Notes: a model not told the origin generated them from the letters alone. A stretch of DNA of 59,585 bases, filler included, from Diploschistes diacapsis (GCA_023645945.1; 5 parts of 5 records of this genome joined end to end with filler, not necessarily neighbours in it); one strand, 5' to 3'; counted from the first letter of the whole stretch, positions 1-20,571 are shown. Numbers and translations are program-made.

Positions 1-1490
1 GGGTTGAGCCGGGAGGTTGGGGAAGGTGATGCTGTTGCTGTCAATGTTCTTGTGGAGCCAGCCAACCGTGTGTAGGTACAGGAGGGATGTAGCGAGTTTG
101 TGGACGAGGGCGATGCGGATCGTCAGAGAGGGACGGGGGGTAGATGAGAGAGCATGGGCGAGGGAGGTGGGTGGGAGCTCGGCTAGCTGGGTTGGGTTGG
201 AGAGGGTGTAGACGATGCCGAAACGGTCGAGTTTCACATTCGAGTTGCCGGTCGCTTCGCGGTCGTCAAAAAAGCCTAGGCAGCGCGGAGCGAGGAACTC
301 AGCGATATGTGGCAGCTTGAGTAGTGAGACGAGCTCACGCACGCGGGCCACGTTGGCGTCAAGGGGCTTGCGCACCGGGTGCCCGTTGGAGTCGCGATCC
401 GCTTCGCCATTGTAGGACTTCCACTCAATCCAGACGAAAGTTGTTGCGCCGTCTTCCGTGAGAGTGCCCGTGGAGCGGACTGTAGAGTTCAATTTTGAGG
501 TCTGTGGGTACGAGATTGAGAGAGGGTCGATGGAGGTTTTGCCGACTACGTCGTGGTAAGCGGGCGGCGCTTCCTTATTCGTCATGTCAGATGCCTCGGG
601 AGTGTCTGAGGCGTCGGAAAGAACGTTCATCTCCTTCAATTCGGCTAGGGACTTGAGGACTTGGTAGTTGTGTTCCTGTAAGGCGTTCCTCCCCAAGGGT
701 TTCGCTACTCCGTGGCCACCAAGCACTAAAGCCGCAGCTATCAGGGACCTGAGGTCCTCTACGGACGACCGGACTTGGATCATCTCCAGGTATGTGTTCC
801 GCGTCGTCACCTCGAGCTTCCGAGCATAGTGCCCATGCAGTAGTTCATGTAGATAATTGTTGTATTCTTCGAGCCTGCGCAGTAGCTCCTTGAAGATATC
901 CGCATCGAATGCGACCCACCAGAGCCTCTTCGGCTCAATAACCACATTCTTGACGTTTTTTGCCATGGCAAGTATATGGTTCGTGCCCCTGATATGGTCT
1001 CTCTTCTTTGCATTCTTCTCATATCTCAAAGAAATAGACGCAAATCCTACAGCTAGGTCTATGTTAACCTTTTTGGCTTCCTCGTCTGCTGTCCGGTCTG
1101 GTTTCAACTGCTCATAGCGTCCATTTAGCGAAGCAAATTCGTCCACGAGCGCTTTGATATTGGACAAGATAGTAACCAAGACCAGTTTATCCGCACGAAG
1201 AGCTTCCGGAACATCTTGACCAGATTCTTCTTCTACAAATCCAGCGGCTTCTGCCCAACTTAGCAGCCTTTGATACTCGATTTGTAGCTTCAGGCACAGG
1301 TCACTGCATTGCTTAGGCATATTAGCCGCAGCTAGGAACACCTTATAGCCTTGACCCAATCAGCTGGGAGCCCGTAGCTGAGATCATCGTTAGAGAGCGC
1401 CTGAGAAATCGGTTCCAAACCTTTGACAACACCATCAAGGAGCTGTATAGCAAGGCTAGCGGCGCCTATCGCTGTGCCCGGGTCCACCAT
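1..1490 (-). CDS. HeLo (prion-inhibition/propagation) domain + protein-kinase-like (probable pseudokinase) protein; 3' end runs off the window
   Basis: Not in the ORF track. Manual translation from ATG 1490: MVDPGTAIGAASLAIQLLDGVVK, intron ~1420-1350 (GT..AAG), then GYKVFLAAANMPKQCSDLCLKLQIEYQRLLSWAEAAG (HeLo-type). It continues KRLWWVAFDADIFKELLRRLEEYNNYL, VWIEWKSY, LAPRCLGFFDD, RIALVHKLATSLLYLHTVGWLHKNIDSNSI (kinase-like fold) and is open to base 1. Confidence 0.85.
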
Positions 1491-1937
1491 AATGGATGAT
1501 AAAAAGGCTCACTGTTCTTTAGCAGATGGCGATGTCATCCTGTTTGAAGTGCAACTTGGAGATAAATTTCAATAAGGAAACCTAAACGCAGCAGCGCTAT
1601 AGCCTCCATCTTAAAGGGCCTGGAGGCTGCGCCTAGAAGACTAATAGAGGCTTTGCGATAACTCGCGAATGGGGTTGCATGGTTGGGCATGGCTGCGCTC
1701 GAGCGATTAGCCTATGAGAGCGAGGAGTAGGAGGGTACGAGGCAGATTTCAAAGCAGCACCTGGACGAGAATCAGCCGAGCCCTATGGCCCTATTGCCGG
1801 TCATGCTCTCAGCCTTGTCTGGCCTTGATCGCGGGACTCGGTGAGGAGAGGTATGCACTCTATGATTTCCATCGTCTTGGATTCATGGACGAATTATATA
1901 TATATCTAAGAATTAACAGAGGCGCCATATCCAAGTA

Positions 1938-3409
1938 ATGCCCCATTACGAAGGTGCAGCAGGTGCAGTGTCTATAACAGCGTCGTTGGCCACAGCGGAT
2001 GAGGACAGTCCATGGGCAAGCAAAATGTTGCTTTCCCTGGATGGGGGAGGCATACGGGGTTATTCATCTTTGTTGATTCTTAAGAGGTTGATGGACGAAG
2101 TGAGCTTGCTGGAACGCAGTAAGGAGCCATCTGCGTTGTCGAGCGCGCATTCGATCTGGAACCATGAGACTGCAGAGGAAGCAGCATCGCATCCGAACGA
2201 CTATTTGCCTTGCCACTACTTTGACTACATCGGAGGAACTTCCACGGGTGGACTTATCGCTGTCATGTTGAGTCGGCTCCGGATGAGCGTAGACCAGTGC
2301 ATCGGGGTGTACAAAGACCTGGGAAAGCAGGTATTTGGGCGGCGGGCCAGGTCCCGGTCTTGGTGGAACAGTTTCCAGTCGAGTCCACCGTCGCCCAGAA
2401 TAGGTGTTGCATGCCTTCGCAAATGGCAGCCTTTGCTTCCCAGTCCAGAGGAGAGCGAGGAGATGTTCTGGTCCGACGATATCAGGTGCAGAACCATCGT
2501 GTGCGGAGTATCGGGGCATGCAAAGAGACGCTCCTCACAAGCCCAGCTATTGCGCTCTTACGTTCGAGACGATACTCTGGATCTTGACATCGACAGTAAA
2601 AACTGCAAGCCTCGTTCTCAGTCCATTGGCATAAGCACTGTTGACGAAGCTACCGTGGTCACACCCTGAATTTGGGAATCGGCAAACCTAAGTTCGTATT
2701 TGAACAATCCCAGTCTGGAATTATACGAAGAAGTCCGTCAGAGGCACCAACAGACTGCTGATCCTATCAACGTCTTCCTAAGCCTTGGCACCGGAAATCC
2801 AAAATCCCGTTCATCGCGGCCAAACGGTAGCTTTAAGCCCAAGAGCAAGCTCTCGCGATCATTGACCAGGTTGGAGAAGCATATCAGCTCGGTCTCTGAT
2901 GGGCGTGCACCAAGAGATGAAGCAACGTTCCAAAGAGAAAGGCTTCAACTATTACCGGCTGGACGTCAAGGACTATCTCAGTACGGTCAGGCTCGGTGAA
3001 TGGAAGCCTCTCAACAATGGGAAGATTACTTTGACAGCCATCGAAGCCGCGACGGCGGACTACTTGCGTCAGCCCGATGTGCGGGGCTGAGATGTCTGAA
3101 TGCGCCGAGAGACTGGTCCACAGGCGCGGGAAACGCTCCGAGACTATGCGGTGGGGAAAAAGCTTTGCGCTTGGCACCAGATACCGGTGCAAAGTAGAAC
3201 CTCCGTGCGATTACAAAGATTCAAAAGGGAGAACATATCTATTTCAGAACCGCAATGAGCTCATGGACCACCTGAGGTCCTACCACCATAAGCCTCCCCC
3301 TGATGCACACAATTATGAGGAGATCCAGGCGTTGGTGGATAGAGGCCGAACGAACAGTGGTTTATCCACGGATTCTATACAATGGCTCTACGTTTCTATA
3401 TTGCTTTGA
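1938..3409 (+). pseudogene. Patatin-like phospholipase with C-terminal C2H2-like motif, disrupted
   Basis: LSLDGGGIRG and GGTSTGG motifs are present. In-frame TGA at 2667-2669; frame changes near 2900 and 3085 (pieces 2700-2999, 2899-3090 and 3077-3409 join into one protein). No DGG before NNP. Tail RYRCKVEPPC...LMDHLRSYH. Confidence 0.8.
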
Positions 3410-3490
3410 ATAACAAGCGGATGGCGTTAGTACAGCTCTACGTTTCTATATTGCTTTGAGCAACAAGCGGATAGCGTTAGTACAGCTCTA
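3385..3490. repeat. Tandem ~50-bp direct repeat (2.1 copies) overlapping the patatin stop
   Basis: gctctacgtttctatattgctttga..aacaagcggat.gcgttagtaca starts at 3385 and 3435, with a partial copy at 3485. Confidence 0.95.
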
Positions 3491-3639
3491 GACAGTTATT
3501 AACATTTCATTATGTATGATCAGGAATATGTATCTACGAAGGTGGAAACAATGAGGATATCAAGGTCATGAGAAACGAACTCTTCCATATTCATATATAG
3601 CCATAAATTCATTCCACTTGGTCAAGATTTACCTTTCCT

Positions 3640-6040
3640 CTAATTTGCGACTGAGAAATCAGTGCATACAATGTAATTCACCCGACCTATGCTCCGTTTG
3701 AAAGATATCCACCAACCTAGACCGCCAAGGTCGGCAACTCCGAGCAGTCTGCCATCTGCGCCATGTATTGCATGTCTTTGACCTGTGGACGGGAGTCTGT
3801 ACACGCGTACCTCAGATTCTGCAATTTCGTTAATGAGGCTTTGATTTAAGCAGTAGTGCTTACAGACCTTTCAGTGCCCAATAAAACTGCTCATCAACTT
3901 TTCCTTCCTGCACGTGGTATCGAACGATCTTGTCATAATCACCAAACCCAAGATTCTTGATATCGTCCGTGAGGTATTGAAGGCCCAATGAAGGTGGAGC
4001 TTCAGACTCCTTACCCTTTGCGTCTTGCGGATCTTGGGTACCCTCGATTGTCTTTTTGTCTGCGTGGGAATTAGGCGGCAGTCGTGGATCCAGCCTCCTA
4101 CTGGTTGATGCAGGAATGGCACTGGCAACCACTTCATGTGGTTTCCTTAGAGAACTTGACCTCTTAATCTCCCTATTATCAATCGTGCTGCCATCACGAC
4201 TCGTTACTGTCTTTGCGTTTGCAGACTGACGTGAGTCTGTCACATTCGGCACAGATGGTGCATATGCTTTAGGCAAAGACATATTGAACGCATTGGAGGG
4301 CTGGGAAGGTGGCGTGTGAAAGTAGTCTAGAGAATCACTTTGATAGCTTTCAAAAGATGAAAGGCCCTGAGAACTGGAGCTCGATTCGTCTGAGAATGTT
4401 ATATATGGTGTTCCAGTGGCTTGTCTACTAGGTGCAGAGCGAGAAGTATGTCCTGGCACCTGACCATTGGTGTGTTGCCCTGGATTAGGTCGCGAAGTCT
4501 CGAAGGGATTAACAACGCTTGAATATGCCACAAAATCCGTGCTTTGTGGCCTTCCGACGGGTACTCGGCCATTTTTAGGTGATTTAGATCGAAAAGTAAT
4601 GGTGTCCCGGCTAAGGGAGGAGCGTCTTTCAAGATCAATTCTTCTTTGACTTTGAGGTGGCCGAATAATGGTTGCCCTTGGGCTGTCTGGAGGCGAGACT
4701 GTTCCACCATTACGTATTGGCCTATACCCCGATGGACCTCTGGTTCGCCCGTCTTGGCCTTCACTAGTATCATTCGGCGTGTCGTCTATTCTATCGATTC
4801 GAGATTGCCTTCGAAGCTTGCCTGCTTCTGAGTTTTCTATTTGCACCGGGGAAGGCTTCCAAGCTTCTTTGTGATCAGGGTGACAGTCACGACACCAAGC
4901 TTGGTCCTTGAAAGCAAAGTCTTTCCAGAGGTCTTTTGACTTTGGCCGGTTCTCGGGCAATTTTGACATCATCTTGCAAATGGTTTCGACGGACTGTGAG
5001 ACTGGTTCGATTTCCTTTTCGCTAAGAAACCTGGGGGACTGAAGGGTTGCAAGCTTAGTGCACCAGGCATCGAGTTTGCCAAGGTTGGCGCAGAAGTTCT
5101 CGTTCTTGCCAGTCACATTCACAGAGTAGGAGAAATGGTTTTTGATCGTAGGCCAGGAAAAGCCAAGAATGATCGAAGCCATCTCGAGAAAGACACAACC
5201 AAGCATGAAGACATCGTCCGGATCATCACGAAATGCATTAGGGTCGAGGTCGGCCATTTCTGGAGACATGTATCTCTCCGTTCGCATTGTGCCTTCAGTC
5301 GTGACGTGAGGCACATTTTTTTCGAACCTTTTAGAGATCCCAAAGTCGGTGAGGATAATATAGCCCTGCCAGTCTATGAGGCAGTTTTCTGGTTTTATAT
5401 CCTTGTGGCGCATCCCTACTTCATGGAGGTAGCTCAAAGCCTGACACAGACAGACGAAATAGCCCCTCAGCGTTGTAAGTTTATCCTTGACAGAGCGCTG
5501 GCCAAGGTAAGAATCTTGAGGCAGCTCCCGGGGCTTTTGAGATTTTGTAAGCTTGGGAGTAAGATGTTGGTCTGTGGGGTAATGCTTTGAGATGTCGTTG
5601 AACAAGTCCCCAAGATCGCAAGCCGCAGCTGGGTATATCAGGATGTGCAAGCGGTCACAGTGCCAAAAGGTGCCAAGAAGAACACAGACATGAGGATGAC
5701 GGAGGTCGAGCATGTTTCTTACCTCCGTTTGTGCCCGCGACCGACTTTCCAATTCTGAAGCATCGATGATTTGTTTTACAGCAAATGTATAATCAAATCG
5801 TTTATATGCTCCGTCCACGCTATACTCATCGATGAGTGCAGTGTTGCTCTTTCTTGGTGATGCATCTAGGCTCCGTTTCCAAAGCAGTGGTGCTGGCTTC
5901 GTTGCCACAAATTTGCATTCGATGCTGCCATCCTTCCAGGCAAATTGATTCTTGTCCTCCAGATATTGTCGCACAGCAGAAACTCTTGGCTCTTCAGGGG
6001 ACTGTCTGTCTATTGCAAGCCCATTTTGAGGTTGACTCAT
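3640..6040 (-). CDS. Ser/Thr protein kinase with long low-complexity C-terminal region
   Basis: 726-aa ORF with FAVK, EV..M..LRHPH, HKDIKPEN, TDFG, YMSPE and DVFMLGCVFLEM. Probable last intron ~3869-3819, then a terminal exon (ESEVRVYRLP...SVAN*) ending at 3640. Confidence 0.9.
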
Positions 6041-7309: not shown

Positions 7310-7409
7310 NNNNNNNNNNNNNNNNNNNNNNNNNNNNNNNNNNNNNNNNNNNNTTAATTAATTAANNNNNNNNNNNNNNNNNNNNNNNNNNNNNNNNNNN
7401 NNNNNNNNN
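7310..7409. other. Assembly gap spacer (N44-TTAATTAATTAA-N44)
   Basis: N runs around a six-frame stop linker. Confidence 0.98.
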
Positions 7410-8360
7410 GCGGGGATCTCGAGGGCGAGCAGAGCGAGCAGGGTGCGAAATGGAGCCAAAGGAAAAGAGAAAAAAGAAGAAAGAAAGGGTGCGTATCTTA
7501 CTTCGACAAGGAAGCAGCAGGGGAAAAGACGCTGGAAAGGGTTAGAGGCCTGGAGAGGGGAATGGGTGGAGGTTGTTGTGCTGGCGCATGATGAGGGGTG
7601 GGAAATGGGAGACTATGGATTTGGATGGTGAGGTTGATGTTGGGGAGGATAATGGGGAGGTATATGCATGTTGATGTGGTTGCTGAGGGGAAGATGGGCG
7701 GGGATATAGAGGAGGATATAAGTGGTGATTAGGAAGCAGGGAAGAGAGAAGGGGAACGAGGAACGAGGGGGAGATTGCGGATGCTGAGTGAGCGGAGTTG
7801 CTGGTGGGTGATGGATAAAAGGGTCGATGAGGGAAGGGTTGGGTACGGTCCATGGTTGTACTAGCAGTTCGGGGACTGTGCTGACGGACTGTCCGTATTG
7901 TTGCCTTCGGATTGTCCCGAAGATTTCATTCATGGAGGAGGGAAGTTGCTTTGAGGTCTATTTTCGCAACGTTCATAGAGGGACGTCGAGAGAACTGAAT
8001 GGGGGTAAGGTGCTCGAGAGGTGCCCGAAGTGGCTCACGATAAGCAATTCTGTAGGTCGGATAGAAAGACGCCTGGGTGCTTCAAATGGGATTGGAAATG
8101 GAGCTGAATGGAAGAGAGTACTTCAGGCCTCTATGCGTGCTAGAAGCAAGCATATTTGAAGCCAGGAATGTAGGAGATGACCGAAATGCTTCAAATTGGT
8201 TCGACTAAGGAATCGAATGGAAGTACGTGTTTGTTGCCTCAGCATAGTTAGCGATAAGCCTTTTCTAAATAAACGAAAAATAATGATAATGAAAGATCAA
8301 GTCTAAATAAATGCCATCCGCGCAATTACCCCTTCACCGAAACCCCCGTCAAAAAATACC

Positions 8361-10775
8361 CTACGTCTTTTCGAACCCCCATTCCTCCAACAACTTCACT
8401 ATCTCCTTATGCCCCTTCTCCTCCGCCAAATCCAACGCAATATCCCCAAACTTGTTCATCTCATCCGTGTCCGCACCCGCATCCAGCAGCATCTTGACCA
8501 CTTTCGCGTGGCCCTTCGCCGCCGCCAGATGCAGCGCCGTATCCTCGTTCTTGTCCTTCTGGCCCGGGTTCTTGGAAGCCTTCAGAAGGTCCCGCACCGT
8601 CATGTCGTAGCCCTTCTCCGCCGCTAGGTGCAGCGGCAGGTGGCCGAACTTGTCTGGGATGTCTTGCCGCGGCTTGTGCCGGATCAGCAGGCGCGCTGTC
8701 TCGATGTGGCCGCCCTCGATGGCGAGCAGCAGGGGCGTCATGCCGCGCCAATCGGTGTGGTCGAGCTCGACCGTGCCGTCGGCCCGCAGGACGGCGAGGA
8801 CGAGCTCGCGCTTACCGTTACGAGCCCCGAATTGGAGGCCCTTGCTGAGGAACTTGGTACGCGCGGCCGGGTCGGGGATGTTTGCACTTAGCAGGATGGG
8901 GAACATGTTGGGGGTGTTGTACTTTGCAGCGGAGGTGAGGGCGTTGAAGCCCATCCTGTCCTCCAGCTCGACCTTGGCGCCGTACGAGAGAAGAAGCTGT
9001 GCTCGATCCTCGAAGCCTCGTAGCGCGGCCTCTTGTATCGGGTAACTTTTGTGGTTATCACTGCTGGGAGCATTGGGGTCGGCGCCTGCTTCCAAGAGGT
9101 ATTTCGCCAGGTCGATGACCCTCGATTGTTTGTCGTTTCCGTCGTTCAGTTTCATCACGCAATGCAAGGCACTGTCACAATATTTATTGGTCAAGCTTGG
9201 GTCCAGCTTCGCGGTGTCAATCAGGAGCTTCAGAATGTCAAGGCGGCAAGTATCAATCGCTCGGAATAGAACATTGCCCTTCTCCTCTTCCTTGGTGGGG
9301 ACCGCATTGTGCTCAAGCATGAAGCGGACTAGGCCTTCATTGCCACTCTTAAGGGCCAACGATAAAGCCGAGTTGCCATAGGAATCCTTAGAATTTAAAC
9401 TGGCCTGGCGCCGTTCCATCAGCAAGCGTACTGTCTTCTCGCACCCCTTTTCAGCTGCGGCTGTAAGGGCCTGATCGTAGTCCTCTTTTGCCTGCTCCTC
9501 TCCATGCGCATCCTCGTAATCCAGGATCAAATCAACGATCTCCGGGTAACCGGAGGCTGCCCAATGAAGGGAATGATTTTGATGTGCGAGTTTGAACCCA
9601 GGGTCTCCTCCGCTATCGAGTAGATACCTGTAGATGGCCGTGTTGCCGTATACTGCAGCTCGTGCAATATGTGCCCAACCGTTGTTGTCTATCGCATTGA
9701 TAACGGCGCCCTGGGAGACGAAACGCTTGACATCTTCCAACTCTCTGTTCTTAATAGCGCTTGTTAATGCCCAACTAAGCTCCTCCTTTTCTGCATCGGT
9801 CAAGTATCTTTGAACCTCGAGCGAACTTCCCAAGTTATTTGCAGACTTGTGAGAAGTGGTGACCAGTATCGCGCCATAACCACTATCAGGCAGGTTTTGC
9901 AAAAGGCCAGTGTCCTCAAAAGCGTTGTGATCGTAGCCGTCTAGTACGAGCAACCAGGGATGCCAGCGCTCGCTCAAGAAGTTCCTAACAAATTCTATCT
10001 TTTCGTCCTGGGTTCCTTCCGTTGAGCGACGCACAACGGAAGCAATGCCCTCGAGGCTCCGTAGCAAACCATGGGGAGTCTGAGCGTTCAACCAGAATAC
10101 CGTCTTGAATTGCCCCAGAGCATGCGACTGTCTGGAGTACTCCAGAGCCAGCTGGGTCTTGCCGGCCCCGCTGTTTCCAATCAGCACAACCACGGTCGGT
10201 CTGTCTACTTGAGCTCTTGCCGCATCGTAGAATAGCTGATCCAGCTTCTCAATCAGATCCTTTCGGTCAGCAAATGGCTCCGCGCGCTTTTCCTTCACCT
10301 CGTAATAGTCCACTTCTTCCGGCAACCAGTGAGGAATGTCTTCCGAGTCTATGACATGGTGCAGAATCAGCACGTTGATGTATGTCTGCAAGTTCTTGTC
10401 GATGGCGAGGATCTTTTCGTCATGCTTGAAGCTAGCAAACGACTTGCGGAGCTTCGAGGCTAACGATTCGCCCGGCGCTTTTGCGACTTTATTGAGGATG
10501 GACTCAACCTCTTGGATCAGACCACCACAGCCAGATATAACGCCCTTCAAGATACATCGGGTATCAAAGTCGAATTTGCCGAGCTCCACATCGGACTTTA
10601 CGCGTTGAAGAGCGTTAACAAGGAGAGGCAACTGAGTGTTGATCGATTGTAAAGACCTAGGTACCTCATTCGGGCTGGCTTTGTTATATTCTGCGAGTCT
10701 CTTGCCAATCTTGAAGCCTACGTCGATGAACTGTGCAACAGCTGAAGCAAGGCCAATGGCAGACAAAGGATCCAT
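8361..10775 (-). CDS. Fungal NLR-like STAND protein: SesA/HeLo-like N-terminus, NB-ARC-type P-loop, ankyrin repeats
   Basis: 804-aa ORF. N-terminus MDPLSAIGLASAVAQFIDVG; Walker A GNSGAGKTQLALEY; Walker B WLLVLDG; ILVTTS. Many ankyrin motifs follow (GMTPLLLAIEGGH, GHLPLHLAAEKGY, DTALHLAAAKGH). Confidence 0.92.
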   Translation of the reverse strand: MDPLSAIGLASAVAQFIDVGFKIGKRLAEYNKASPNEVPRSLQSINTQLPLLVNALQRVKSDVELGKFDFDTRCILKGVISGCGGLIQEVESILNKVAKAPGESLASKLRKSFASFKHDEKILAIDKNLQTYINVLILHHVIDSEDIPHWLPEEVDYYEVKEKRAEPFADRKDLIEKLDQLFYDAARAQVDRPTVVVLIGNSGAGKTQLALEYSRQSHALGQFKTVFWLNAQTPHGLLRSLEGIASVVRRSTEGTQDEKIEFVRNFLSERWHPWLLVLDGYDHNAFEDTGLLQNLPDSGYGAILVTTSHKSANNLGSSLEVQRYLTDAEKEELSWALTSAIKNRELEDVKRFVSQGAVINAIDNNGWAHIARAAVYGNTAIYRYLLDSGGDPGFKLAHQNHSLHWAASGYPEIVDLILDYEDAHGEEQAKEDYDQALTAAAEKGCEKTVRLLMERRQASLNSKDSYGNSALSLALKSGNEGLVRFMLEHNAVPTKEEEKGNVLFRAIDTCRLDILKLLIDTAKLDPSLTNKYCDSALHCVMKLNDGNDKQSRVIDLAKYLLEAGADPNAPSSDNHKSYPIQEAALRGFEDRAQLLLSYGAKVELEDRMGFNALTSAAKYNTPNMFPILLSANIPDPAARTKFLSKGLQFGARNGKRELVLAVLRADGTVELDHTDWRGMTPLLLAIEGGHIETARLLIRHKPRQDIPDKFGHLPLHLAAEKGYDMTVRDLLKASKNPGQKDKNEDTALHLAAAKGHAKVVKMLLDAGADTDEMNKFGDIALDLAEEKGHKEIVKLLEEWGFEKT

Positions 10776-13700
10776 TGTTGGGAATGGTGGATTTCAATGA
10801 AGTATTAGTTATCTCCAACTCTTGAGACTTGGCCAGTTCAGCATTCAAGCCTAAGGGCCTCGCAACTTGCGGAACCACGGCGAATTCACCTCATATGCCT
10901 TTTGGCATCTGCTTGAAGGCTTCATAGCCATTTGTTCTGATGTGCCCCTGGGGGCTGCAGGTGCTTGTCCTAAGATCGCCAAGTCATTGCGGCAGAGGGC
11001 ATCCAGATCGAGAAATGGCAAGCGAAAGTTGTCTGACTGTCTTGCTAGCAAGGCTAGCCTCAAAGAATTGTCATGACGGAGAGATTATCTTCAGGTCCGA
11101 AGCTTCCTCTGTAGGAGCAGAAGCAATACAGTCCGACCGGGACCAAGCAATACCTTCAATGCATCATGCTTATGAATGTTGGATGAGACTGTTATTGTTG
11201 AGTAGAAACTGCGTTGACCTACAGGGTGCGCTCCGATAGGGTGTGTGGGTTATCTCTGATCGGGAAGGAGAGAAAATAGGGAGAGACTGTCAAGTTATGT
11301 CTATATTCTTATTAGACCTGCCTATGAGCAGTTCTGGTTTTAGGTGTGACCGACCGTACGTGTCTACTTAAACGCACACTCTTTCTTGTGTAGTTTTTAG
11401 GGACGGTATATGTTAATCTATAGGCAGAACAAGGGCTTGACTTTGCAATGCTGTCAACTAAGTTTGCATAGGATGGTAGGCCAACCTCCAAGAAAGAGAT
11501 ATTCTACAAAAGAACATAGCGTTTCAGTAGCCACGAAGAGCAGAATGCTTGCTACTCCATGGCAAATGCTCCCAACTCGCTGGCCTCGGTGGGCGGTGGG
11601 CGGTACATGAGCTCGGGAGAGGCATGCCCCATCCAAAACGGTAGCAACTGGGCTGCCACAAGTTGATAGGTGCCGATGTACGTTTAGTATAAGCGGGCGA
11701 GCAGGAGCTCTTCCGGCAACAAAGCAGAGATGGTGATCAAAGCCGCCCCAATGGACGCCCAGCTCAAATATGCAACGCCCATGACTTGCATCGTACCTTT
11801 GATGAAGGAGGCGAGCGCGGCTGGACAGACAGGCATCTGGAGCAACACATGCATCAGACATTCTGGGTGCTGCATGCGAGTACGACACAGGTACGCAGCG
11901 GTTGTACGAGCCCCACAATCGTCTTTGCAAGGCGGGAATAGATGCGCAGCTTGGATGTCGCTGCGCATGCAGGGCGGAGTCAAGCATGTGCCTGCCTCGA
12001 GTCAGTTGTCCGAGTAAAAGCATAGGCAGGCTTGGGGCTCAAAGAACGATGCTGCCATCATGTAAGCCGGCAAGGTAATCGGCCTCAGGGGATGCAGGGC
12101 CATTGACGCAGCATGATTGGGCCTGCTAAGACGAAGGCGAGGTATAAATGTAGCAGTCATGAAATTGTCGATTGAGACAGGAACGAGACAATGGGGATAT
12201 GCAGGCTTCTGACTCTGGGTGCGATCGCCACTGTTGGTTATTGCGTGCAGTTGATGGCGACTGGAGCTGAGCTAAGACGTGGGCCGCATGCCCGGCACAG
12301 AGCTCCCTGATAGGTGGCTCGGGCCCAAAAAAAGTGTTTACAGGCAGCAGAAGCACCAAAGCCATGCGATAGTGATGGAATTTGCAATTGCCCGATGTGC
12401 TTAACTTCACAAGCATGGAGCCATATGCCTGCACTTACTCGTTTGCACTCCAGGATGGTCGAACCCGCGACCGAGGGACAGTGCAGTAGCCGAGACTAAT
12501 GCGAGAACCTCCCAGACAAGATCCATCCGACGCCTTCGTACAAGGCCAGGAAAGCTGCAGCTGTGACCTGCACTTTCGCATTCCATCAGATTGGCTGTAT
12601 CTTATAAGACCCGAGATTCTGGACTTCCAGCAGAAGAACTTGATCTGAAACGCTGATCCTCCCTCGAAAAGTTGTCAAGCCTTCTGGCCGCTTTCCGCTA
12701 GTTAGATGGTTCCACCTTGCAGTGCTTGCACAAAGTCCCTTGAGGTTCCACAAGCACATCAGGACCAGGAGAGGGGGTTCGAACAGCGAACAGCGGACGC
12801 GAAAATGTTAATCCGATAACGGCATCCCAACAAGACGATGTGAGAATCCTCCTGTACAGCAATCCAACGCCATTATCCGTACGGCCTTCTCTGCAGTCAG
12901 CGTTGCATTACTGAAGTATATGCGCGGATTTGCACCCAGGAAAGCGGGGTAGAAGTTCTGGGCCGGTATGGTGGAAGAAGCCACAAAGCTGCACCACCGA
13001 GCTTGTACAACGAAGACGTGCAGTGAGACTAGTCGACGAAGATCCAAGAACTGATGGAGGATAGAATCCCAGTTTGCAGATTTAGGCTCGCAACAACAGT
13101 GACTGCGGTTGGACTGCACTTAATATATCCGCCTGAGAACAGCCTGAAGCTCGAGCCTGATAGAATCCATATGAGAAAGGACATTGAGCAGCAAATTTGT
13201 AGCGCTATATGTGATAACAGCCGACAACCAACCGAACGGGATCATGGTCTCCTATCTAGCATTATTCCTTCTGTCCATAACCTCCACCCTCCACAAAGTA
13301 ACGTGACTGATTTGGACCCGACAGGCAGGACAAGGCGGCTGAAGAGCACGCCTTCGTGAAATCTTCGAGCACGTTGTCGCGAGCCAACGGTAGCCAGAAG
13401 CGTACAGTAATGGTGGGGTGCCAAAGGACGCAGATACTGATAGAGGGGCATGTGACCGTTTTGAAGCAGTTTTCTAGTTTTCTAGTGGAAGAAGACGGAC
13501 GACCACCAAATATGGGGTAACAGTTAGGGCAGTGTACTCGGGTGGTGTGGTTACAGTCTGGTATCAGAAGTTTTACATGTGGAGCTGTCCTTTCTTCGTA
13601 GGCCAGCCCTGTGTAAGCGCCGGAGCTAAGACCAAGGCGCCTCGGGAGGGGGTCATGGCGCTCTCTGATTGGTCACTTTGCGAAACGGGCTGGTCAACGC

Positions 13701-14805: not shown

Positions 14806-15965
14806 GTATTATACACTAACCTAGTAAATTCTGCTGCGAGACTGATGATGGACGTTTCATATGCCAGTTGCAAATGTCCATGGCTGGCACGGAACAGCTA
14901 GCACATTCTGCAAGAGCAGGCCCTGGCCAGCAAAACAGTGCAAAACAGTATTGAGGCCAACAACATGGTGATTTAGGCGCCAGGATCAGACAAAAGCAAG
15001 CAGCTACAGGGCAGGGCAGGGCTGGGGCAGAACGCTTCTATCACATAACAGGGCAGGGCAGGGCAAGGTAGGGTAGGGCAGGGGTCTCAAGAGATATAAT
15101 TAATACGTGCCGATGGCATTGCGCTGCTGTGCGTGCCTTTGTCGTGTATCTGGTGCTCTGGCTTTTCTCCTTCGCTCGCGGGCATCTCCGGCCGCTTTTT
15201 TGTAAGTCGGACATGCCCTGACTGCGATAGATGCGAGGTTCTGTGTCAAGGGGGACGCTTCTAAGCAGGCCGCGCGTACAATGTCGCGGTCCTCGTACCT
15301 CCTCTCTCCCACTAGCAGAAGGTGCAAGCAAGCACAACAAGTCGATCCCCGTCTCGCAAACTCCTGTATACAGAAAAGCCTTGTCGCCTATACTACATGC
15401 CATATTCTCTCAAGACTTCCCTTCGAGGTCGAGAGCGGGATCGGCTTGACGCTTGCACTTCCCTGGCCCCCCTTCCACGTAATTTCCCGCGGTGCTTCCC
15501 TTTCCGCTTTGCACGGCAAAGTAAGCCCCCTCACAGCTCGCGTAATCCGGTTGTTCGTGGGTTAGATGGTGACAACATCTCCCCACATATCCTCCGCTCC
15601 TGTTTTCCTCTTCCTGCTTTTGTTGGGCCTCGGCCTTTGTCTTTTCCGCCCTCTGGCCGCAAGGTCCTTGTCGATTGTCGATTGTCGTTGATTGATCAGC
15701 ATCTGTGTGTGTCCGTCTCGGCTTCGGTACCTCGTCAGGCTCCAAGTAGGGAGGGATGGATGGGGACAAAGGCGGTGGCGGTGGCAGTGGTGGTGATGTT
15801 GATGGCGATAGTGATGGCGTCCCGTCGTCGGTGTCGTCCTTGTTCTTGTCCTTGTTACCTGCGATAGGATCTCTGCTTGGAGCCTGGTACTTTGGCTCAA
15901 GTTTGGGGGTGGAGGGACGGGATAGATGGCGACATTGGCGCGGGTCTGGCGTTGGTGGGATGTTC

Positions 15966-15968
<3 letters not shown>

Positions 15969-16011
<43 letters not shown>
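15969..16011. repeat. (TG)n microsatellite, ~21 units
   Basis: Direct reading. Confidence 0.98.
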
Positions 16012-16014
<3 letters not shown>

Positions 16015-16725
16015 ACGGCTCTCCTGAGGTTAGAGGGTCCTGGATGTGAGATGGTTTGTGGCTCGCCGCTTGCTTTCGTTCTTGCCTGGGGTTTGTTTGC
16101 CGTTTGGGATGGGGCTTGGAGCTTGAGCAGGTATTTGAGGGACGAGGAACGGGCGTGGGTGCGGTTGCTGGGGGCTGACTTGGTTGTTTTGCATGGGCCT
16201 TGGGGCCTGAGCAGCAGGTTGGGCTCAGTCTTACAAAGGCTGTCGATAACACGTCAGTGTTCGAGCTTGACGCTCTGGCTCTGGCTCTTTCACGCGAGCC
16301 TTGGAAGGATTTTGGCGGGTGGACGAACTCGGACCTGGACTTCCGGCGGGCTCTTGTTTTTTGGAGGGGAGAGTCTCGAACTAAAGAGCAGAGAAGATGT
16401 TCCTTCTCGTATGTATGAGACGTAAATTCATGGCATGGTATCCGGGACTGCCCACCGGCGACGCGGACAGGTTGACTGGTTTCCAATTCCAGCTCCGATC
16501 CATCTGCATAACCTTCCAAGTCTTGCGAGGGTAGAGACTGCAGGCCCTGGCTGACTGTGGGTTTGTACTAATAGGTCATTCGTAGTTGCATTTCCGATCA
16601 AGATCCTGCTATCGCTCAAACTCGACCATTTCAGGCTTGGCCTTTGTTAGCTGTTGCTCATCTTTGGATAGCACTAATTTGAAATTGAAAATCTCATCGT
16701 TGTACTTTGTTGCCTTCAAAGCATC

Positions 16726-18500
16726 TCATTCTTCATAACCTCCTAAAACACTTGGTTCGGAATTCGAGATTAGGATATTAATATTCACGGTATTGTCCTC
16801 CAATATTTGTTGTTTTTCAGTCGGGTTTCTGTCTCGCTGTTGTATCTCACTACAGGATCGCTTCCAGCAGCGTTCGGACCAAAGCGCACGACCCAACCGC
16901 ATGTCAACGACTGCTGTAGATGTGACGATGCAATCTTCAGAACTCCTTAGAAATTTTAAATATTTAGCTCTTGGAAAGAACGCAGCCTCGAGGAGAGCAT
17001 GGAGATCCCGATTTCCACCCATAAACCGATATGCCACAAAGCAGCTAAACACCCCAACGCAGTCGTGTAAGGCCTCGAACTCCCCTTGAGTTCTACGAAG
17101 AGCATGTTCCAGGTCTTCTGTCGAAGGGTTTTTGCTAATCTTTAAAATCTTCACGCTCCAAAGAATCTTGTCATGTCTGTAATGCTCGCGACATTCCCCT
17201 TTAGTCTTGTGTACTCTCCGTGAGATGGTTGCCCAACTGAGGTTAAGGGCGATCATGTGAAACAAGAGAGTTGACTGTTTAACGCTCCACCCTTGATCAT
17301 GCTCAAGGTCTGTCGGCTTCGGTTTTGAAGCATAATCGAGTGTCTCTACTTTACCAGTATTCGAACTATCTCTGGCCCTATCGGCACATTCTGGTTTGGC
17401 CCCCTGGGCTATATCTGTCGTTCTAAGACCCTCGCTTCCAAGACGAGACTTGTTCTTATTATCCGAGCCATTAGCGACTTCTGAATAGTAAGAGTTTTGA
17501 GAAGCGTTTAATTCCGGATCAACTATTTCGTCTCGTCCGTCAGGCAAAACTGCCAGTCCCCGAACCAAGGGTGAAGCCGCTGGTGAAACTTTCTTGGCCC
17601 TAGTATCCCAGCTTAACTGCAGATGAGCACAGGACTGGTCTATGGAAGGAAGAAGGTCCATCAGGCAGTCAATTGCGTTCTGCAGAGCATCACCTACATC
17701 AGCATCACTCGTGCTAGTAGAATGAATAGACTGTCCATCCTGATAATCACAGTCTTCTGAGGAATTATGACCATCTTGGCCAAAGGCAGCACCTAGGAGA
17801 CGCCTCTCCCAAGGTTTAATTGATTTGTCGTCATCATCAACGACTGTTGAAGCTGGACGTGAAGCGCATGGGGCTTCGTCAAGTAGACAACGCAAATTCT
17901 TGAAACAACCATGACTGCTTAACTCTGGGCTCTCCTCGTCAACGAGACCAAGGAGCAACTTTCCATATTGACTCAGATACTTGAGCACCGCTTCCTTTAA
18001 ATCACTTGACTTGCAAAGAACCAGAGATAATCGACCATCGCCGTATTCCCGTCCCCATAGGAACAACTTTGTGAACGTGTCCTTCAACAAGCTCTTTGGA
18101 GCGGCCGAAGGTATCCATGTTGTGGACGCTTGGAGATGTGCGATCGACTCGAGCAACGACCGATACAACACTTCAGTAAGATCGAAGTTGGGCTCAGGGG
18201 ATCTTTAATCCAGATTTGAATCAGAGACATCGCAAAGCCATTCTCTGGTTTTGTTGAGTAGAGCTTCAGCTTCACCGTCTGTGACGGGCCGGTGGTCGTC
18301 GAGCTGCGCCAGCCCTAAATGCCGAGATTTCTCCCTGTTTACTGACGTCCGAGTTCTTCGCATCGCCATAGTCCAAGGTTTTAGGAAACTTCTCTGGTCA
18401 AATGAAAGTGCAAAGAGCACAGGGCAGTTCCGTGCGAGTCTTGTTCCAAGCAAGGCTGGGGAAGGGCATCAAATCCCCAAGTCTTTGACAATCATATCAT
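16726..18500 (-). CDS. Uncharacterised fungal protein with helical HeLo-like segment and a Myb/SANT-like motif; 5' part interrupted by in-frame stops
   Basis: 481-aa ORF with KLFLWG...GRL..VL..S.DLKEAVL, NAIDCLMDLLPSI and LSWATISRRVHKTKGECREHY. ORF 18205-18453 is the same frame, separated by a single TAA at 18205-18207. Confidence 0.5.
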
Positions 18501-18733: not shown

Positions 18734-20571
18734 ATGGCTGAAGCGGCTGGCCTTGTGCTGGCGGTTCTTCCTCTGATAATTTCTGCTGTAGAGCACTACG
18801 AGCAATGCCTAAAACCAGTTCAACGGTTTATCAAATTCACCTCGCAGGCCAAGCGATTTCAACAAAAGTTTGATGTCCAGAAAACAATATTTCGGAATCA
18901 ATGTCTATTACTCCTTCAGGAGGTAGTAGAGTCCAATGTTGCCCATCTCATGATTAGTGATGGGAAGCATCCCTGCTGGACCAACGTGGAAGTTGATGGC
19001 GAGCTTGGGAAGCAGCTGGAGGCCTCTGGGAACTCTTGCTTTGAAGTCATCAAGGAGATCAATGCAGTGCTCGTGCGGGTTCAGATTTGGAGCTCGACGC
19101 TTGATGACACAATCGAGCAAGAAGGAAAGGTATATGGAGCTTTAAATACTTGGAAAACCATGGGAAACTGACACTTGTTTACATTTAGGCTTGTCCTTTC
19201 GGGGGCAAGGTATGGAGATCAATTGTACGTACGAAGCTCAAGTTCAGCTTTTCCGAATCGCTTCTTGATGACTCCCTGGTGGAACTTAAAGACCTGAACA
19301 ACAGTTTTCTGACCTTGTCTGATCAAACTTCAAAGTTACATGAACATGAAATCAAGAATCACAGCCTGGCAAAACCTTTTGCTAAAGATATTGCAAAAGT
19401 TAAGTTCATCCAACAAGCAAGCTGCAGGGTTTACGAGGCGCTCGGCCGCTCTTGTTCCAAACACTCCGAGCACAGAACCCAGTTCTGTCTAGAGGCTAAA
19501 TCCATTGGCTCCCCCGAAAGTCCTCAGGTTCAGTTCAGGGTAGCGTTCGCAAGAGTCGCTAGTCGAGAGGCGGCTGGCGTCTGCGATCCAATATTCTTTA
19601 CAATCGAGTCTTGCATCACCGAGTCTGCAGCTGCGACCCCTGTCGAAAGCAGTGTTTCCACCATCAATAAGCTCAAGCGGAATCTGGCAAGCGAAACAGC
19701 AGGGTCTGCAAAGAAGATTAAGTCCTTGACGTTCGAAAGTGTCGAGTGTTCTCATCTTTGCTATCAGCTACCTGCAGCTGATTTACAGGATTTGAAGGAC
19801 CTCTGCAGCAACCAAAACTTCTGTGACCGTCTCCGTGATTGTCTGCAGCAATGCCCAGAAGGCCTCCAGTATATGGGCACTTTGGGCAGCACGGACCCTT
19901 ACAGGCATCTCGTATATCTTCCTGAGAAGAAGAAGGTGCATCGACCGATGTTGTCATTGAAGGACATTATTACGATGTCCTCTCGCCAGGGTTTGTCAGT
20001 TCGCTTGTCCATTTATGAGCGACTTCATCTTGCCCACTCTCTTGCAATGGCAGTCTTGCAGTATTATGCTACTCCATGGCTTAGCGGTCCTTTACGATGC
20101 GAAGATATATTTTTCTATGACGTTGAAGAGAGGTTATTGCCGCAGCGGAGTTCTAACTCTATTTCTGAGCCGCACATTGACGCCCACATCGTACATCCGA
20201 ATCCCACTCTTTCTATACCAACCACGGGTGTCATCGAGCACCTCGCACCCAACATCCTCCTTTTCAATCTCGGCATTATGCTCATCGAACTCGCTTACAT
20301 GACTACTTTCCGAGATCTACTGAGCCTGAAGGAACTATCTTACCGAGACTCACAGTATACCGAGTTTCTCGCCGCCCGTAGACTGGGCATACTTGTTAGT
20401 CGAGAGCTGGGATCGAAGTACGGCAAGATTGTTCAGAAATGCCTGGGGTGCCATTTTGCTGCCGGGCCTGACCTAAGCAGCTCAGAGCTGCAAGCGGAGT
20501 ACTACAGAGATGTTGTCAAAGAGCTTGAAGGCATCGAAGATGATTTAGCTTCGCTGAAGATGGACAGCTGA
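18734..20571 (+). CDS. HeLo-like N-terminal domain + degenerate kinase-like C-terminal domain (DUF7580-type)
   Basis: Exon 1 18734-19129 (MAEAAGLVLAVLPLIISAVEHY); intron GTATAT..TTTAG 19130-19188; exon 2 is in frame with ORF 19279-20571 (RLHLAHSLAMAVLQYYATPWL, LFNLGIMLIEL, ELGSKYGKIVQKCLGC). Confidence 0.85.

Follow-up and report, generated by a model that had tools for sequence, protein, structure and literature searches.

Does a fungal kinase gene that is linked to the gene for a HeLo protein serve as the switch of that protein? This question is raised by three genes at the start of a stretch of DNA from Diploschistes diacapsis (GCA_023645945.1), which encode a protein with a HeLo domain followed by a DUF7580 domain, a patatin-like protein and a Ser/Thr kinase; "the window" below means the whole of that stretch, 59,585 nucleotides with filler included. 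An earlier note on this DNA had read the trio as a necroptosis-like module in which the kinase switches on the HeLo protein and the patatin-like phospholipase acts as a co-effector. The evidence presented here suggests that the three-gene cluster may be a kinase-switched cell-death module. The reading that we favor, with moderate confidence, is that the window holds a copy of a conserved fungal neighborhood coupling HeLo-DUF7580 genes to a Ser/Thr kinase gene, and that this neighborhood most likely specifies a kinase-gated executioner. Because its patatin-like gene is dead, with one stop codon and two frameshifts, the window copy is a partly decayed cluster that can retain two components at most. 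The gene models are as follows, with P numbers denoting related proteins.

1490..1421, minus strand: exon 1 of the HeLo-DUF7580 gene (read from the sequence; homologous N-termini).
1420..1350, minus strand: intron of the HeLo-DUF7580 gene, 71 nt, GT..AG, with a CTCTAAC branch-like site (read from the sequence).
1349..1, minus strand: exon 2 of the HeLo-DUF7580 gene, running off the window start (open reading frame (ORF) 1..1359; Pfam; alignment with relatives).
1491..1937, no strand: head-to-head intergenic region of 447 bp between the HeLo and patatin-like genes (gene coordinates).
1938..3409, plus strand: patatin-like pseudogene whose 3' part encodes a Cys/His tail (ATG at 1938; tblastn of P0023 and P0052; alignment).
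3385..3490, no strand: tandemly duplicated 50-bp unit (2.1 copies), 3' end of the patatin-like gene (Tandem Repeats Finder).
6040..3868, minus strand: exon 1 of the kinase gene, with an N-terminal motif, the kinase domain, a CRDCHP motif and a long Ser/Pro-rich linker (ORF; Pfam; alignment).
3867..3819, minus strand: intron of the kinase gene, 49 nt, GT..AG (read from the sequence).
3818..3640, minus strand: exon 2 of the kinase gene, supplying the second half of the roughly 90-residue conserved domain at the C-terminus (LPSTGQ...VADLGGLGWW...NYIV) (sequence; tblastn with the C-termini of P0245 and P0181).

These gene models, like the motifs, the pseudogene state of the patatin-like gene and the recurrent linkage, are established directly. 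They bear out the layout described in the earlier note, in which three tightly packed genes include a HeLo and a patatin-like gene diverging across about 450 bp (447 bp as measured) and a kinase gene converging on the patatin-like gene about 230 bp away (kinase stop at 3640, end of the patatin frame at 3409). The 447-bp region between the two divergent genes probably serves as a shared promoter.

The closest relatives of the trio proteins come from lichen-forming Lecanoromycetes, and the neighborhood recurs there. Among sequencing runs, a lichen metagenome was the sole one to match the locus almost identically. Consecutive locus tags place HeLo, patatin-like and kinase genes in the order of the window in Xylographa soralifera (MMC17_004494/5/6) and X. 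bjoerkii (MMC18_007868/69/70), and HeLo and patatin-like genes side by side in X. trunciseda (MMC11_007592/3). Further sets are found on records of identical length, five of them with all three genes (13188, 15949, 16874, 46676 and 70791), three with HeLo and kinase (16101, 11231 and 35077) and two with HeLo and patatin (9443 and 20354). Linkage was also tested at the DNA level in 46 metagenome loci (L numbers) that encode HeLo-DUF7580 relatives and amount to 474,495 bases, six of which (L001-L005 and L009) hold close relatives of the window gene. At L002 and L004 the kinase gene (plus strand), the patatin-like gene (minus strand) and the HeLo-DUF7580 gene (plus strand) stand in the order and orientation of the window, and the patatin-like ORFs are intact (572 and 530 aa). 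At L001 and L005 a head-to-head patatin-like gene stands beside the HeLo-DUF7580 gene and the contig then ends. The trio takes another order at L033 and L035, where the patatin-like gene (plus strand) is convergent with the kinase gene (minus strand) and the HeLo-DUF7580 gene (plus strand) follows.

Over all 46 loci, a Pkinase-type match lies 0.7-4.4 kb upstream of the HeLo-DUF7580 gene in 16 (about 12 of them non-redundant), on the opposite strand and head-to-head in 13 of the 16; no kinase match was found downstream of these genes or anywhere else in the 474,495 bases. The linkage extends to distant HeLo-DUF7580 genes (25-38% identity, 19 loci), 14 of which have a Pkinase gene 0.7-2.5 kb upstream, nearly always on the opposite strand. 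One subfamily of 19 loci, resembling P0012, shows no kinase neighbor; upstream sequence reaches 3 kb or more at seven of these loci, and the subfamily serves as an internal control for the kinase search. Homologs are thus syntenic elsewhere, a point on which the earlier note had made its proposal depend: the trio recurs, and kinases stand beside HeLo-DUF7580 genes in several divergent subfamilies. A conserved HeLo-pseudokinase/kinase neighborhood exists, and in a lichen-fungus branch it includes a patatin-like gene, which in the subfamily of the window sits between the other two.

Some of these loci hold further features. The head-to-head kinase genes of L028 (5007-9350, minus strand) and L036 (3983-8776, minus strand) appear to continue into ankyrin repeats, the former also with a GGACT-like stretch and the latter with a DnaJ CXXCXGXG stretch, and their products may be kinases with a repeat-type sensor part. 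At L003, the HeLo-DUF7580 gene, which has neither a kinase nor a patatin neighbor, is followed 4 kb downstream by an NLR-like (NOD-like receptor) gene of NACHT/NPHP3_N type (15774-18041, plus strand).

The protein encoded by the first gene of the window matches Pfam HeLo (PF14479) with E 9.8e-29 and 101 bits against a cut-off of 23.2, in agreement with the HeLo assignment made earlier, and its relatives and the locus genes score between E 1e-20 and 1e-49. Exon 1 supplies an Ala/Gly/Leu-rich, putatively helical N-terminus, MVDPGTAIGAASLAIQLLDGVVK, and the exon join, which brings ...DGVVKG to YKVFLAAA..., agrees with the N-termini of P0011, P0012 and P0015. The frame is open over 453 codons within the window, and the protein is 61% identical to the 607-aa P0001. 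At the catalytic-loop position it reads WLHKNIDSNS, with no HRD, exactly as had been noticed before. A truncation had been overlooked: directly after this loop the gene is cut off by the contig end, and the contig of run X1, the probable source run, also starts at window base 1. The C-lobe and activation loop of the product therefore lie outside the window, only the first half of DUF7580 is present, and its Pfam match to DUF7580 is weak.

In a structural model of P0001, the DUF7580 part takes a kinase fold, with a predicted local distance difference test score (pLDDT) of 65-91 over residues 285-607. Residues 255-607 superpose on MerTK, BRAF, c-MET, CRAF and CTR1 (VIA Z 19-20, root-mean-square deviation of about 3 Å over 250-270 residues), and the best matches in the PDB to the sequence profile of the domain are the tyrosine kinase-like (TKL) kinases LIMK1, IRAK4 and RAF. 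A loop survey covered 167 family members, made up of the first 18 matches listed in the HeLo search and 149 representatives from a larger search, and the H-K/R loop was recognizable in 164. At the position of the HRD aspartate these most often have G (100 members), S (23) or A (22), and 4 have D; [ST]GF[DE] stands in place of DFG. The β3 lysine (WIEWK) is invariant in the aligned relatives, and the stretch that follows GFE/GFD is rich in Ser and Thr (median 3 per 25 residues). As the HRD and DFG aspartates are missing almost throughout, DUF7580 is predicted to be a catalytically dead kinase fold and hence a pseudokinase family, and the loss of catalytic residues is a trait of the family and not a peculiarity of the window gene. 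A cut-off of E<=0.001 yields 5954 representatives of this very large family and one of E<=1e-30 yields 1808, and the Atlas clusters of HeLo-DUF7580 relatives hold 50-104 members from Ascomycota.

The window contains a second DUF7580 gene at 18734-20571 (plus strand; Pfam E 4.1e-14), the loop of which reads WLSGPLRCEDIFF. The ORF upstream of it begins MAEAAGLVLAVLPLII and matched no Pfam family, and no kinase match was found in the upstream neighbor ORF at 16726-18204 (minus strand). Elsewhere, single annotated proteins combine Pkinase, HeLo and DUF7580 (P0394, Pyrenochaeta), HET, HeLo and DUF7580 (P0415, Neopestalotiopsis), or an annotated kinase, a HeLo tail and DUF7580 (P0149, X. pallens, and P0281). 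All four were left out as evidence, because either true fusion or the merging of gene models in annotation could account for them.

The kinase gene of the window is open over 726 + 59 codons. Its product matches Pkinase (PF00069) with E 5.3e-26 from profile position 24 onward, and the kinases beside more distant HeLo-DUF7580 genes match from position 1-4. It carries the FAVK, HKDIKPEN, DFG and SPE motifs, which confirms the earlier description of an intact catalytic set, and across its family K89, E106, HKDIKPEN, DFG and SPE are conserved in all 18 aligned sequences with little or no variation. Of the kinases with a solved structure, NEK7, a PKR chimera, SGK1, ASK1, PknB and CDK2 come nearest. 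In a model of an 816-residue relative, P0165, the kinase domain (pLDDT 80-97) is followed by a disordered linker of about 250 residues (pLDDT 30-40) and a compact α/β unit of about 90 residues at the C-terminus (pLDDT 73-90); this C-terminal domain gave no match in Pfam and no usable match in the Atlas.

Beyond the kinase gene, an N-run (scaffold gap) occupies about 7358-7410, and the first scaffold contig in the X1 assembly has 7309 bases. Across that gap, 2.3 kb beyond the kinase gene, an 810-codon frame at 8361-10793 (minus strand) is of NLR type, with a SesA N-terminal domain, a NACHT/NB-ARC-type NTPase and ankyrin repeats; no tie between it and the trio was found.

The earlier note also overlooked that the patatin-like gene of the window is not intact. 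The gene is recognizable as a patatin (Pfam PF01734, E 7.6e-11), with both the oxyanion motif GGGIRG and the nucleophile motif GTSTGG. The tblastn alignment with P0023, its closest relative (59-62% identity), is colinear only when it passes through three frames, namely +3 at 1965-2900, +1 at 2905-3084 and +2 at 3089-3379, with no room for introns; an intron at 2827-2887 considered for the first change of frame was ruled out by the frame +3 alignment with P0023, which spans those bases. Frame +3 is interrupted by an in-frame TGA at 2667-2669, and the two frameshifts are an extra base near 2901 and an extra base in a G-run near 3083. The contig of run X1 carries this sequence at a k-mer depth of 95.7, and the contigs of two further runs, X2 and X3, which carry the locus at about 2-4% divergence, are each one base shorter at exactly 2901 and 3083. 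Both frameshifts are therefore real and specific to the window strain. A different single base, at 3301, is deleted from the X2 copy, and the tandem duplication at the 3' end is single-copy in this run, the X2 contig skipping 50 bases from 3410 to 3461. The tail described earlier as C2H2 amounts to a Cys/His pattern, with no significant Pfam family (zf-C2H2_13, E 0.5).

Alignment shows a second loss, independent of these lesions. A segment of 8-12 residues with the catalytic Asp is deleted in the patatins of the window, P0023, P0038, P0073 and P0077. The residue is retained as YYDA/YFDA in the Xylographa patatins, P0079, L002, L004 and most relatives of the patatin-kinase pair type, and as DGG in the Fusarium and Rhypophila patatins. 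The part of a phospholipase co-effector that had been proposed for this gene cannot be upheld, because the gene is a pseudogene here and the catalytic Asp is missing throughout its subclade: a working enzyme is excluded in the window strain and unlikely in the subclade.

With a HeLo N-terminal domain and a kinase fold that is predicted to be catalytically dead, the HeLo-DUF7580 protein has the domain plan of MLKL. In the reading that we favor, the HeLo part would be a membrane-attacking helical N-terminal domain of HET-S type, the pseudokinase domain would restrain it, and the linked kinase would free it, either directly or through the patatin-like protein, with membrane damage and cell death in defense or non-self recognition as the outcome. 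As the catalytic Asp has been lost, the patatin-like protein of this clade, if it acts at all, would be a non-catalytic adaptor or sensor. A role in cell death, the phospho-switch and the patatin role are what we infer from the cluster. A wider proposal, which we put forward tentatively and regard as somewhat doubtful, is that filamentous ascomycetes possess a genetically hard-wired counterpart of the RIPK3-to-MLKL step, in which the head-to-head kinase would phosphorylate the activation loop of the HeLo-pseudokinase and free the pore-former. The dead patatin would have been recruited as adaptor or sensor in the lichen-fungus branch, and the module would turn over fast within species in the manner of immune or allorecognition genes.

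Several observations weigh against the kinase-gated executioner. The HeLo part of the P0001 model (residues 15-247) is helical with pLDDT below 60, in a protein that lacks exon 1, so that the HeLo assignment comes from the Pfam match and not from the model. The glycine-rich loop GxGxxG was found in none of 17 window-type kinases with a FAVK motif, and because it is missing in the whole family checked, kinase activity is plausible rather than assured. The likeness to MLKL and RIPK extends to domain plan and wiring and not to a specific match among those listed, as set out below. The co-variation of distances among the kinases and among the HeLo-pseudokinases over 13 loci (Mantel r 0.55, a value reached in 7 of 5000 permutations) counts for the favored reading, being in keeping with co-divergence, yet kinship among the host species confounds it. 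No RNA run was among the matches listed for the trio locus. The close relatives at L003 and L009 have no kinase and no patatin within 10 kb, and, as noted, the P0012-like subfamily has no kinase neighbor. The pairing of patatin and kinase is far commoner than the trio, and the HeLo differences listed against X2 are mostly nonsynonymous; these last points each lend themselves to another explanation.

The wide distribution of the patatin-kinase pair raises the prospect that the patatin-like protein is the main partner of the kinase. The two genes have consecutive tags in 8 further named genomes, from Lecanoromycetes and from Endocarpon, which belongs to another class, with no HeLo gene seen, and a hand count pairs 25 of the 119 non-self kinases listed with a listed patatin on a contig of identical length. 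The functional unit could then be the convergent pair, acting in regulated lipase or lipid signaling, with the HeLo-pseudokinase as an occasional neighbor that is not a target of the kinase. The convergent unit is indeed common to both trio layouts (window, L002 and L004; L033 and L035), and the C-terminal domain of the kinase and the Cys/His tail of the patatin, each a conserved, family-specific part outside Pfam, would be extras specific to the pair. Against this stand 12 loci at which a kinase lies beside the HeLo-pseudokinase gene with no patatin match in the fetched DNA (L016, L021, L022, L028, L029, L030, L036, L037, L039, L040, L041 and L042). A regulated lipase is also unlikely for the five trio-type patatins from which the catalytic-Asp segment has been deleted, and the absence of HeLo genes from the 8 genomes was judged from the 22 HeLo matches listed, so that a HeLo neighbor may well exist in some of them. 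We consider the pair as sole functional unit unlikely. A further explanation, that the adjacency is inherited synteny or chance and the genes are functionally uncoupled, gains from the fact that most trio cases come from one fungal group (Xylographa and lichen-derived contigs) and from the missing neighbors at L003, L009 and throughout the P0012-like subfamily. The association nevertheless outlasts the rearrangement seen at L033 and L035, recurs with HeLo-pseudokinases only 25-33% identical to that of the window, and places 16 of 16 kinase matches on the 5' side within 4.4 kb, with none elsewhere in the 474 kb fetched; kinase and HeLo-pseudokinase subfamilies also co-cluster. On this evidence, uncoupled genes are highly improbable.

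Variation within the species bears on whether the cluster has any present function in this genome, or is a decaying relic in which the patatin-like gene is dead and the other two genes are drifting. The patatin lesions in X1, at the depth given above, and the separate deletion in X2 are what a relic would show, and coding DNA has diverged from X2 about as much as non-coding DNA (1.2-2.5% per contig piece). Among the differences listed for X2 and X3, which cover 40 of 162 substitutions and 12 of 18 indels, the HeLo gene has 11 nonsynonymous and 3 synonymous changes against X2, a ratio of nonsynonymous to synonymous rates (dN/dS) of about 1.2. This value appears to fit relaxed selection (decay) and diversifying selection equally, and a high dN/dS is also typical of immune and allorecognition genes. 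Drift sits poorly with the open frames of the HeLo and kinase genes. Inside them the indels listed for X2 and X3 amount to a single site of minor depth, at 5316; the extra base that both runs have at 3839 falls within the kinase intron. The trio locus is present in all three samples, with no presence/absence polymorphism among them. We regard a relic without function as improbable.

The fungal HeLo/HELL executioners known so far are triggered by amyloid templating from NLRs or are built into NLRs, and no description of how the very numerous HeLo-pseudokinase proteins are controlled was found in the literature searched. A recurrent and mostly head-to-head kinase linkage offers a concrete candidate for their upstream switch, and bears on whether kinase-gated killing by HeLo/4HB domains arose once or several times in eukaryotes. 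Taken by itself, the window yields a smaller result, namely a cluster copy in partial decay. The architecture of HeLo/HELL domain plus pseudokinase has already been noted in reviews and is thus known. A full-text literature search, the scope of which excluded subscription journals and supplements, returned no report of a kinase gene linked to HeLo-pseudokinases or of a patatin partner, and no paper for the term "DUF7580".

A close parallel is MLKL with RIPK3, together with the plant MLKLs. There, too, a helical N-terminal domain of HeLo/4HB type precedes a kinase fold without the catalytic Asp, and a separate kinase with its catalytic residues goes with it, encoded here by a gene linked to that of the HeLo-pseudokinase; the Ser/Thr-rich segment after the GFE/GFD motif adds to the likeness. 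The RIPK3 and MLKL genes are not neighbors, so the linkage is a fungal feature. MLKL was not among the 60 best profile matches of DUF7580 or the 40 matches at E<=10 for P0012, nor among the Foldseek or VIA fold matches listed for P0001, where tied TKL and tyrosine kinases come out on top, and RIPK was not among the 60 best PDB matches listed for the window-type kinase; absence from these lists leaves a distant kinship possible. The RHIM core [IV]Q[IVLC]G was found in none of 18 kinases, 18 HeLo-pseudokinases and 15 patatins, nor in exon 2 of the window kinase. Of the label "MLKL-RIPK-type" given to the trio earlier, the domain plan and the analogy in wiring thus stand, and the listed matches offer no specific sequence or fold match. 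With no specific MLKL or RIPK affinity among those matches and no RHIM core, the resemblance to necroptosis is best described as an analogy of architecture and wiring, not as family membership.

Neurospora PLP-1 and Podospora HET-Z share with the window patatin a domain with GGGxRG and GxSxG motifs. According to a passage in a review (PMC12881547), death caused by PLP-1 requires patatin activity. The window patatin differs from both in having no NB-ARC/TPR receptor fused to it, in belonging to a subclade without the catalytic-Asp segment, and in being encoded by a broken gene.

The HET-S/HELLP executioners of Podospora and Chaetomium (NWD2/HET-S; PNT1/HELLP/SBP) are like the HeLo-pseudokinases in that both have a HeLo domain (PF14479), which in the latter would likewise begin with a hydrophobic helix, and in being clustered with presumed regulators. 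In the HELLP system the cluster partner SBP is a lipase-type gene. The differences lie in the C-terminus and in the neighbor. The HeLo-pseudokinases end in a pseudokinase domain, with no prion-forming or amyloid motif in a scan that covered the RHIM-like core, and the gene clustered with them encodes a kinase and not an NLR.

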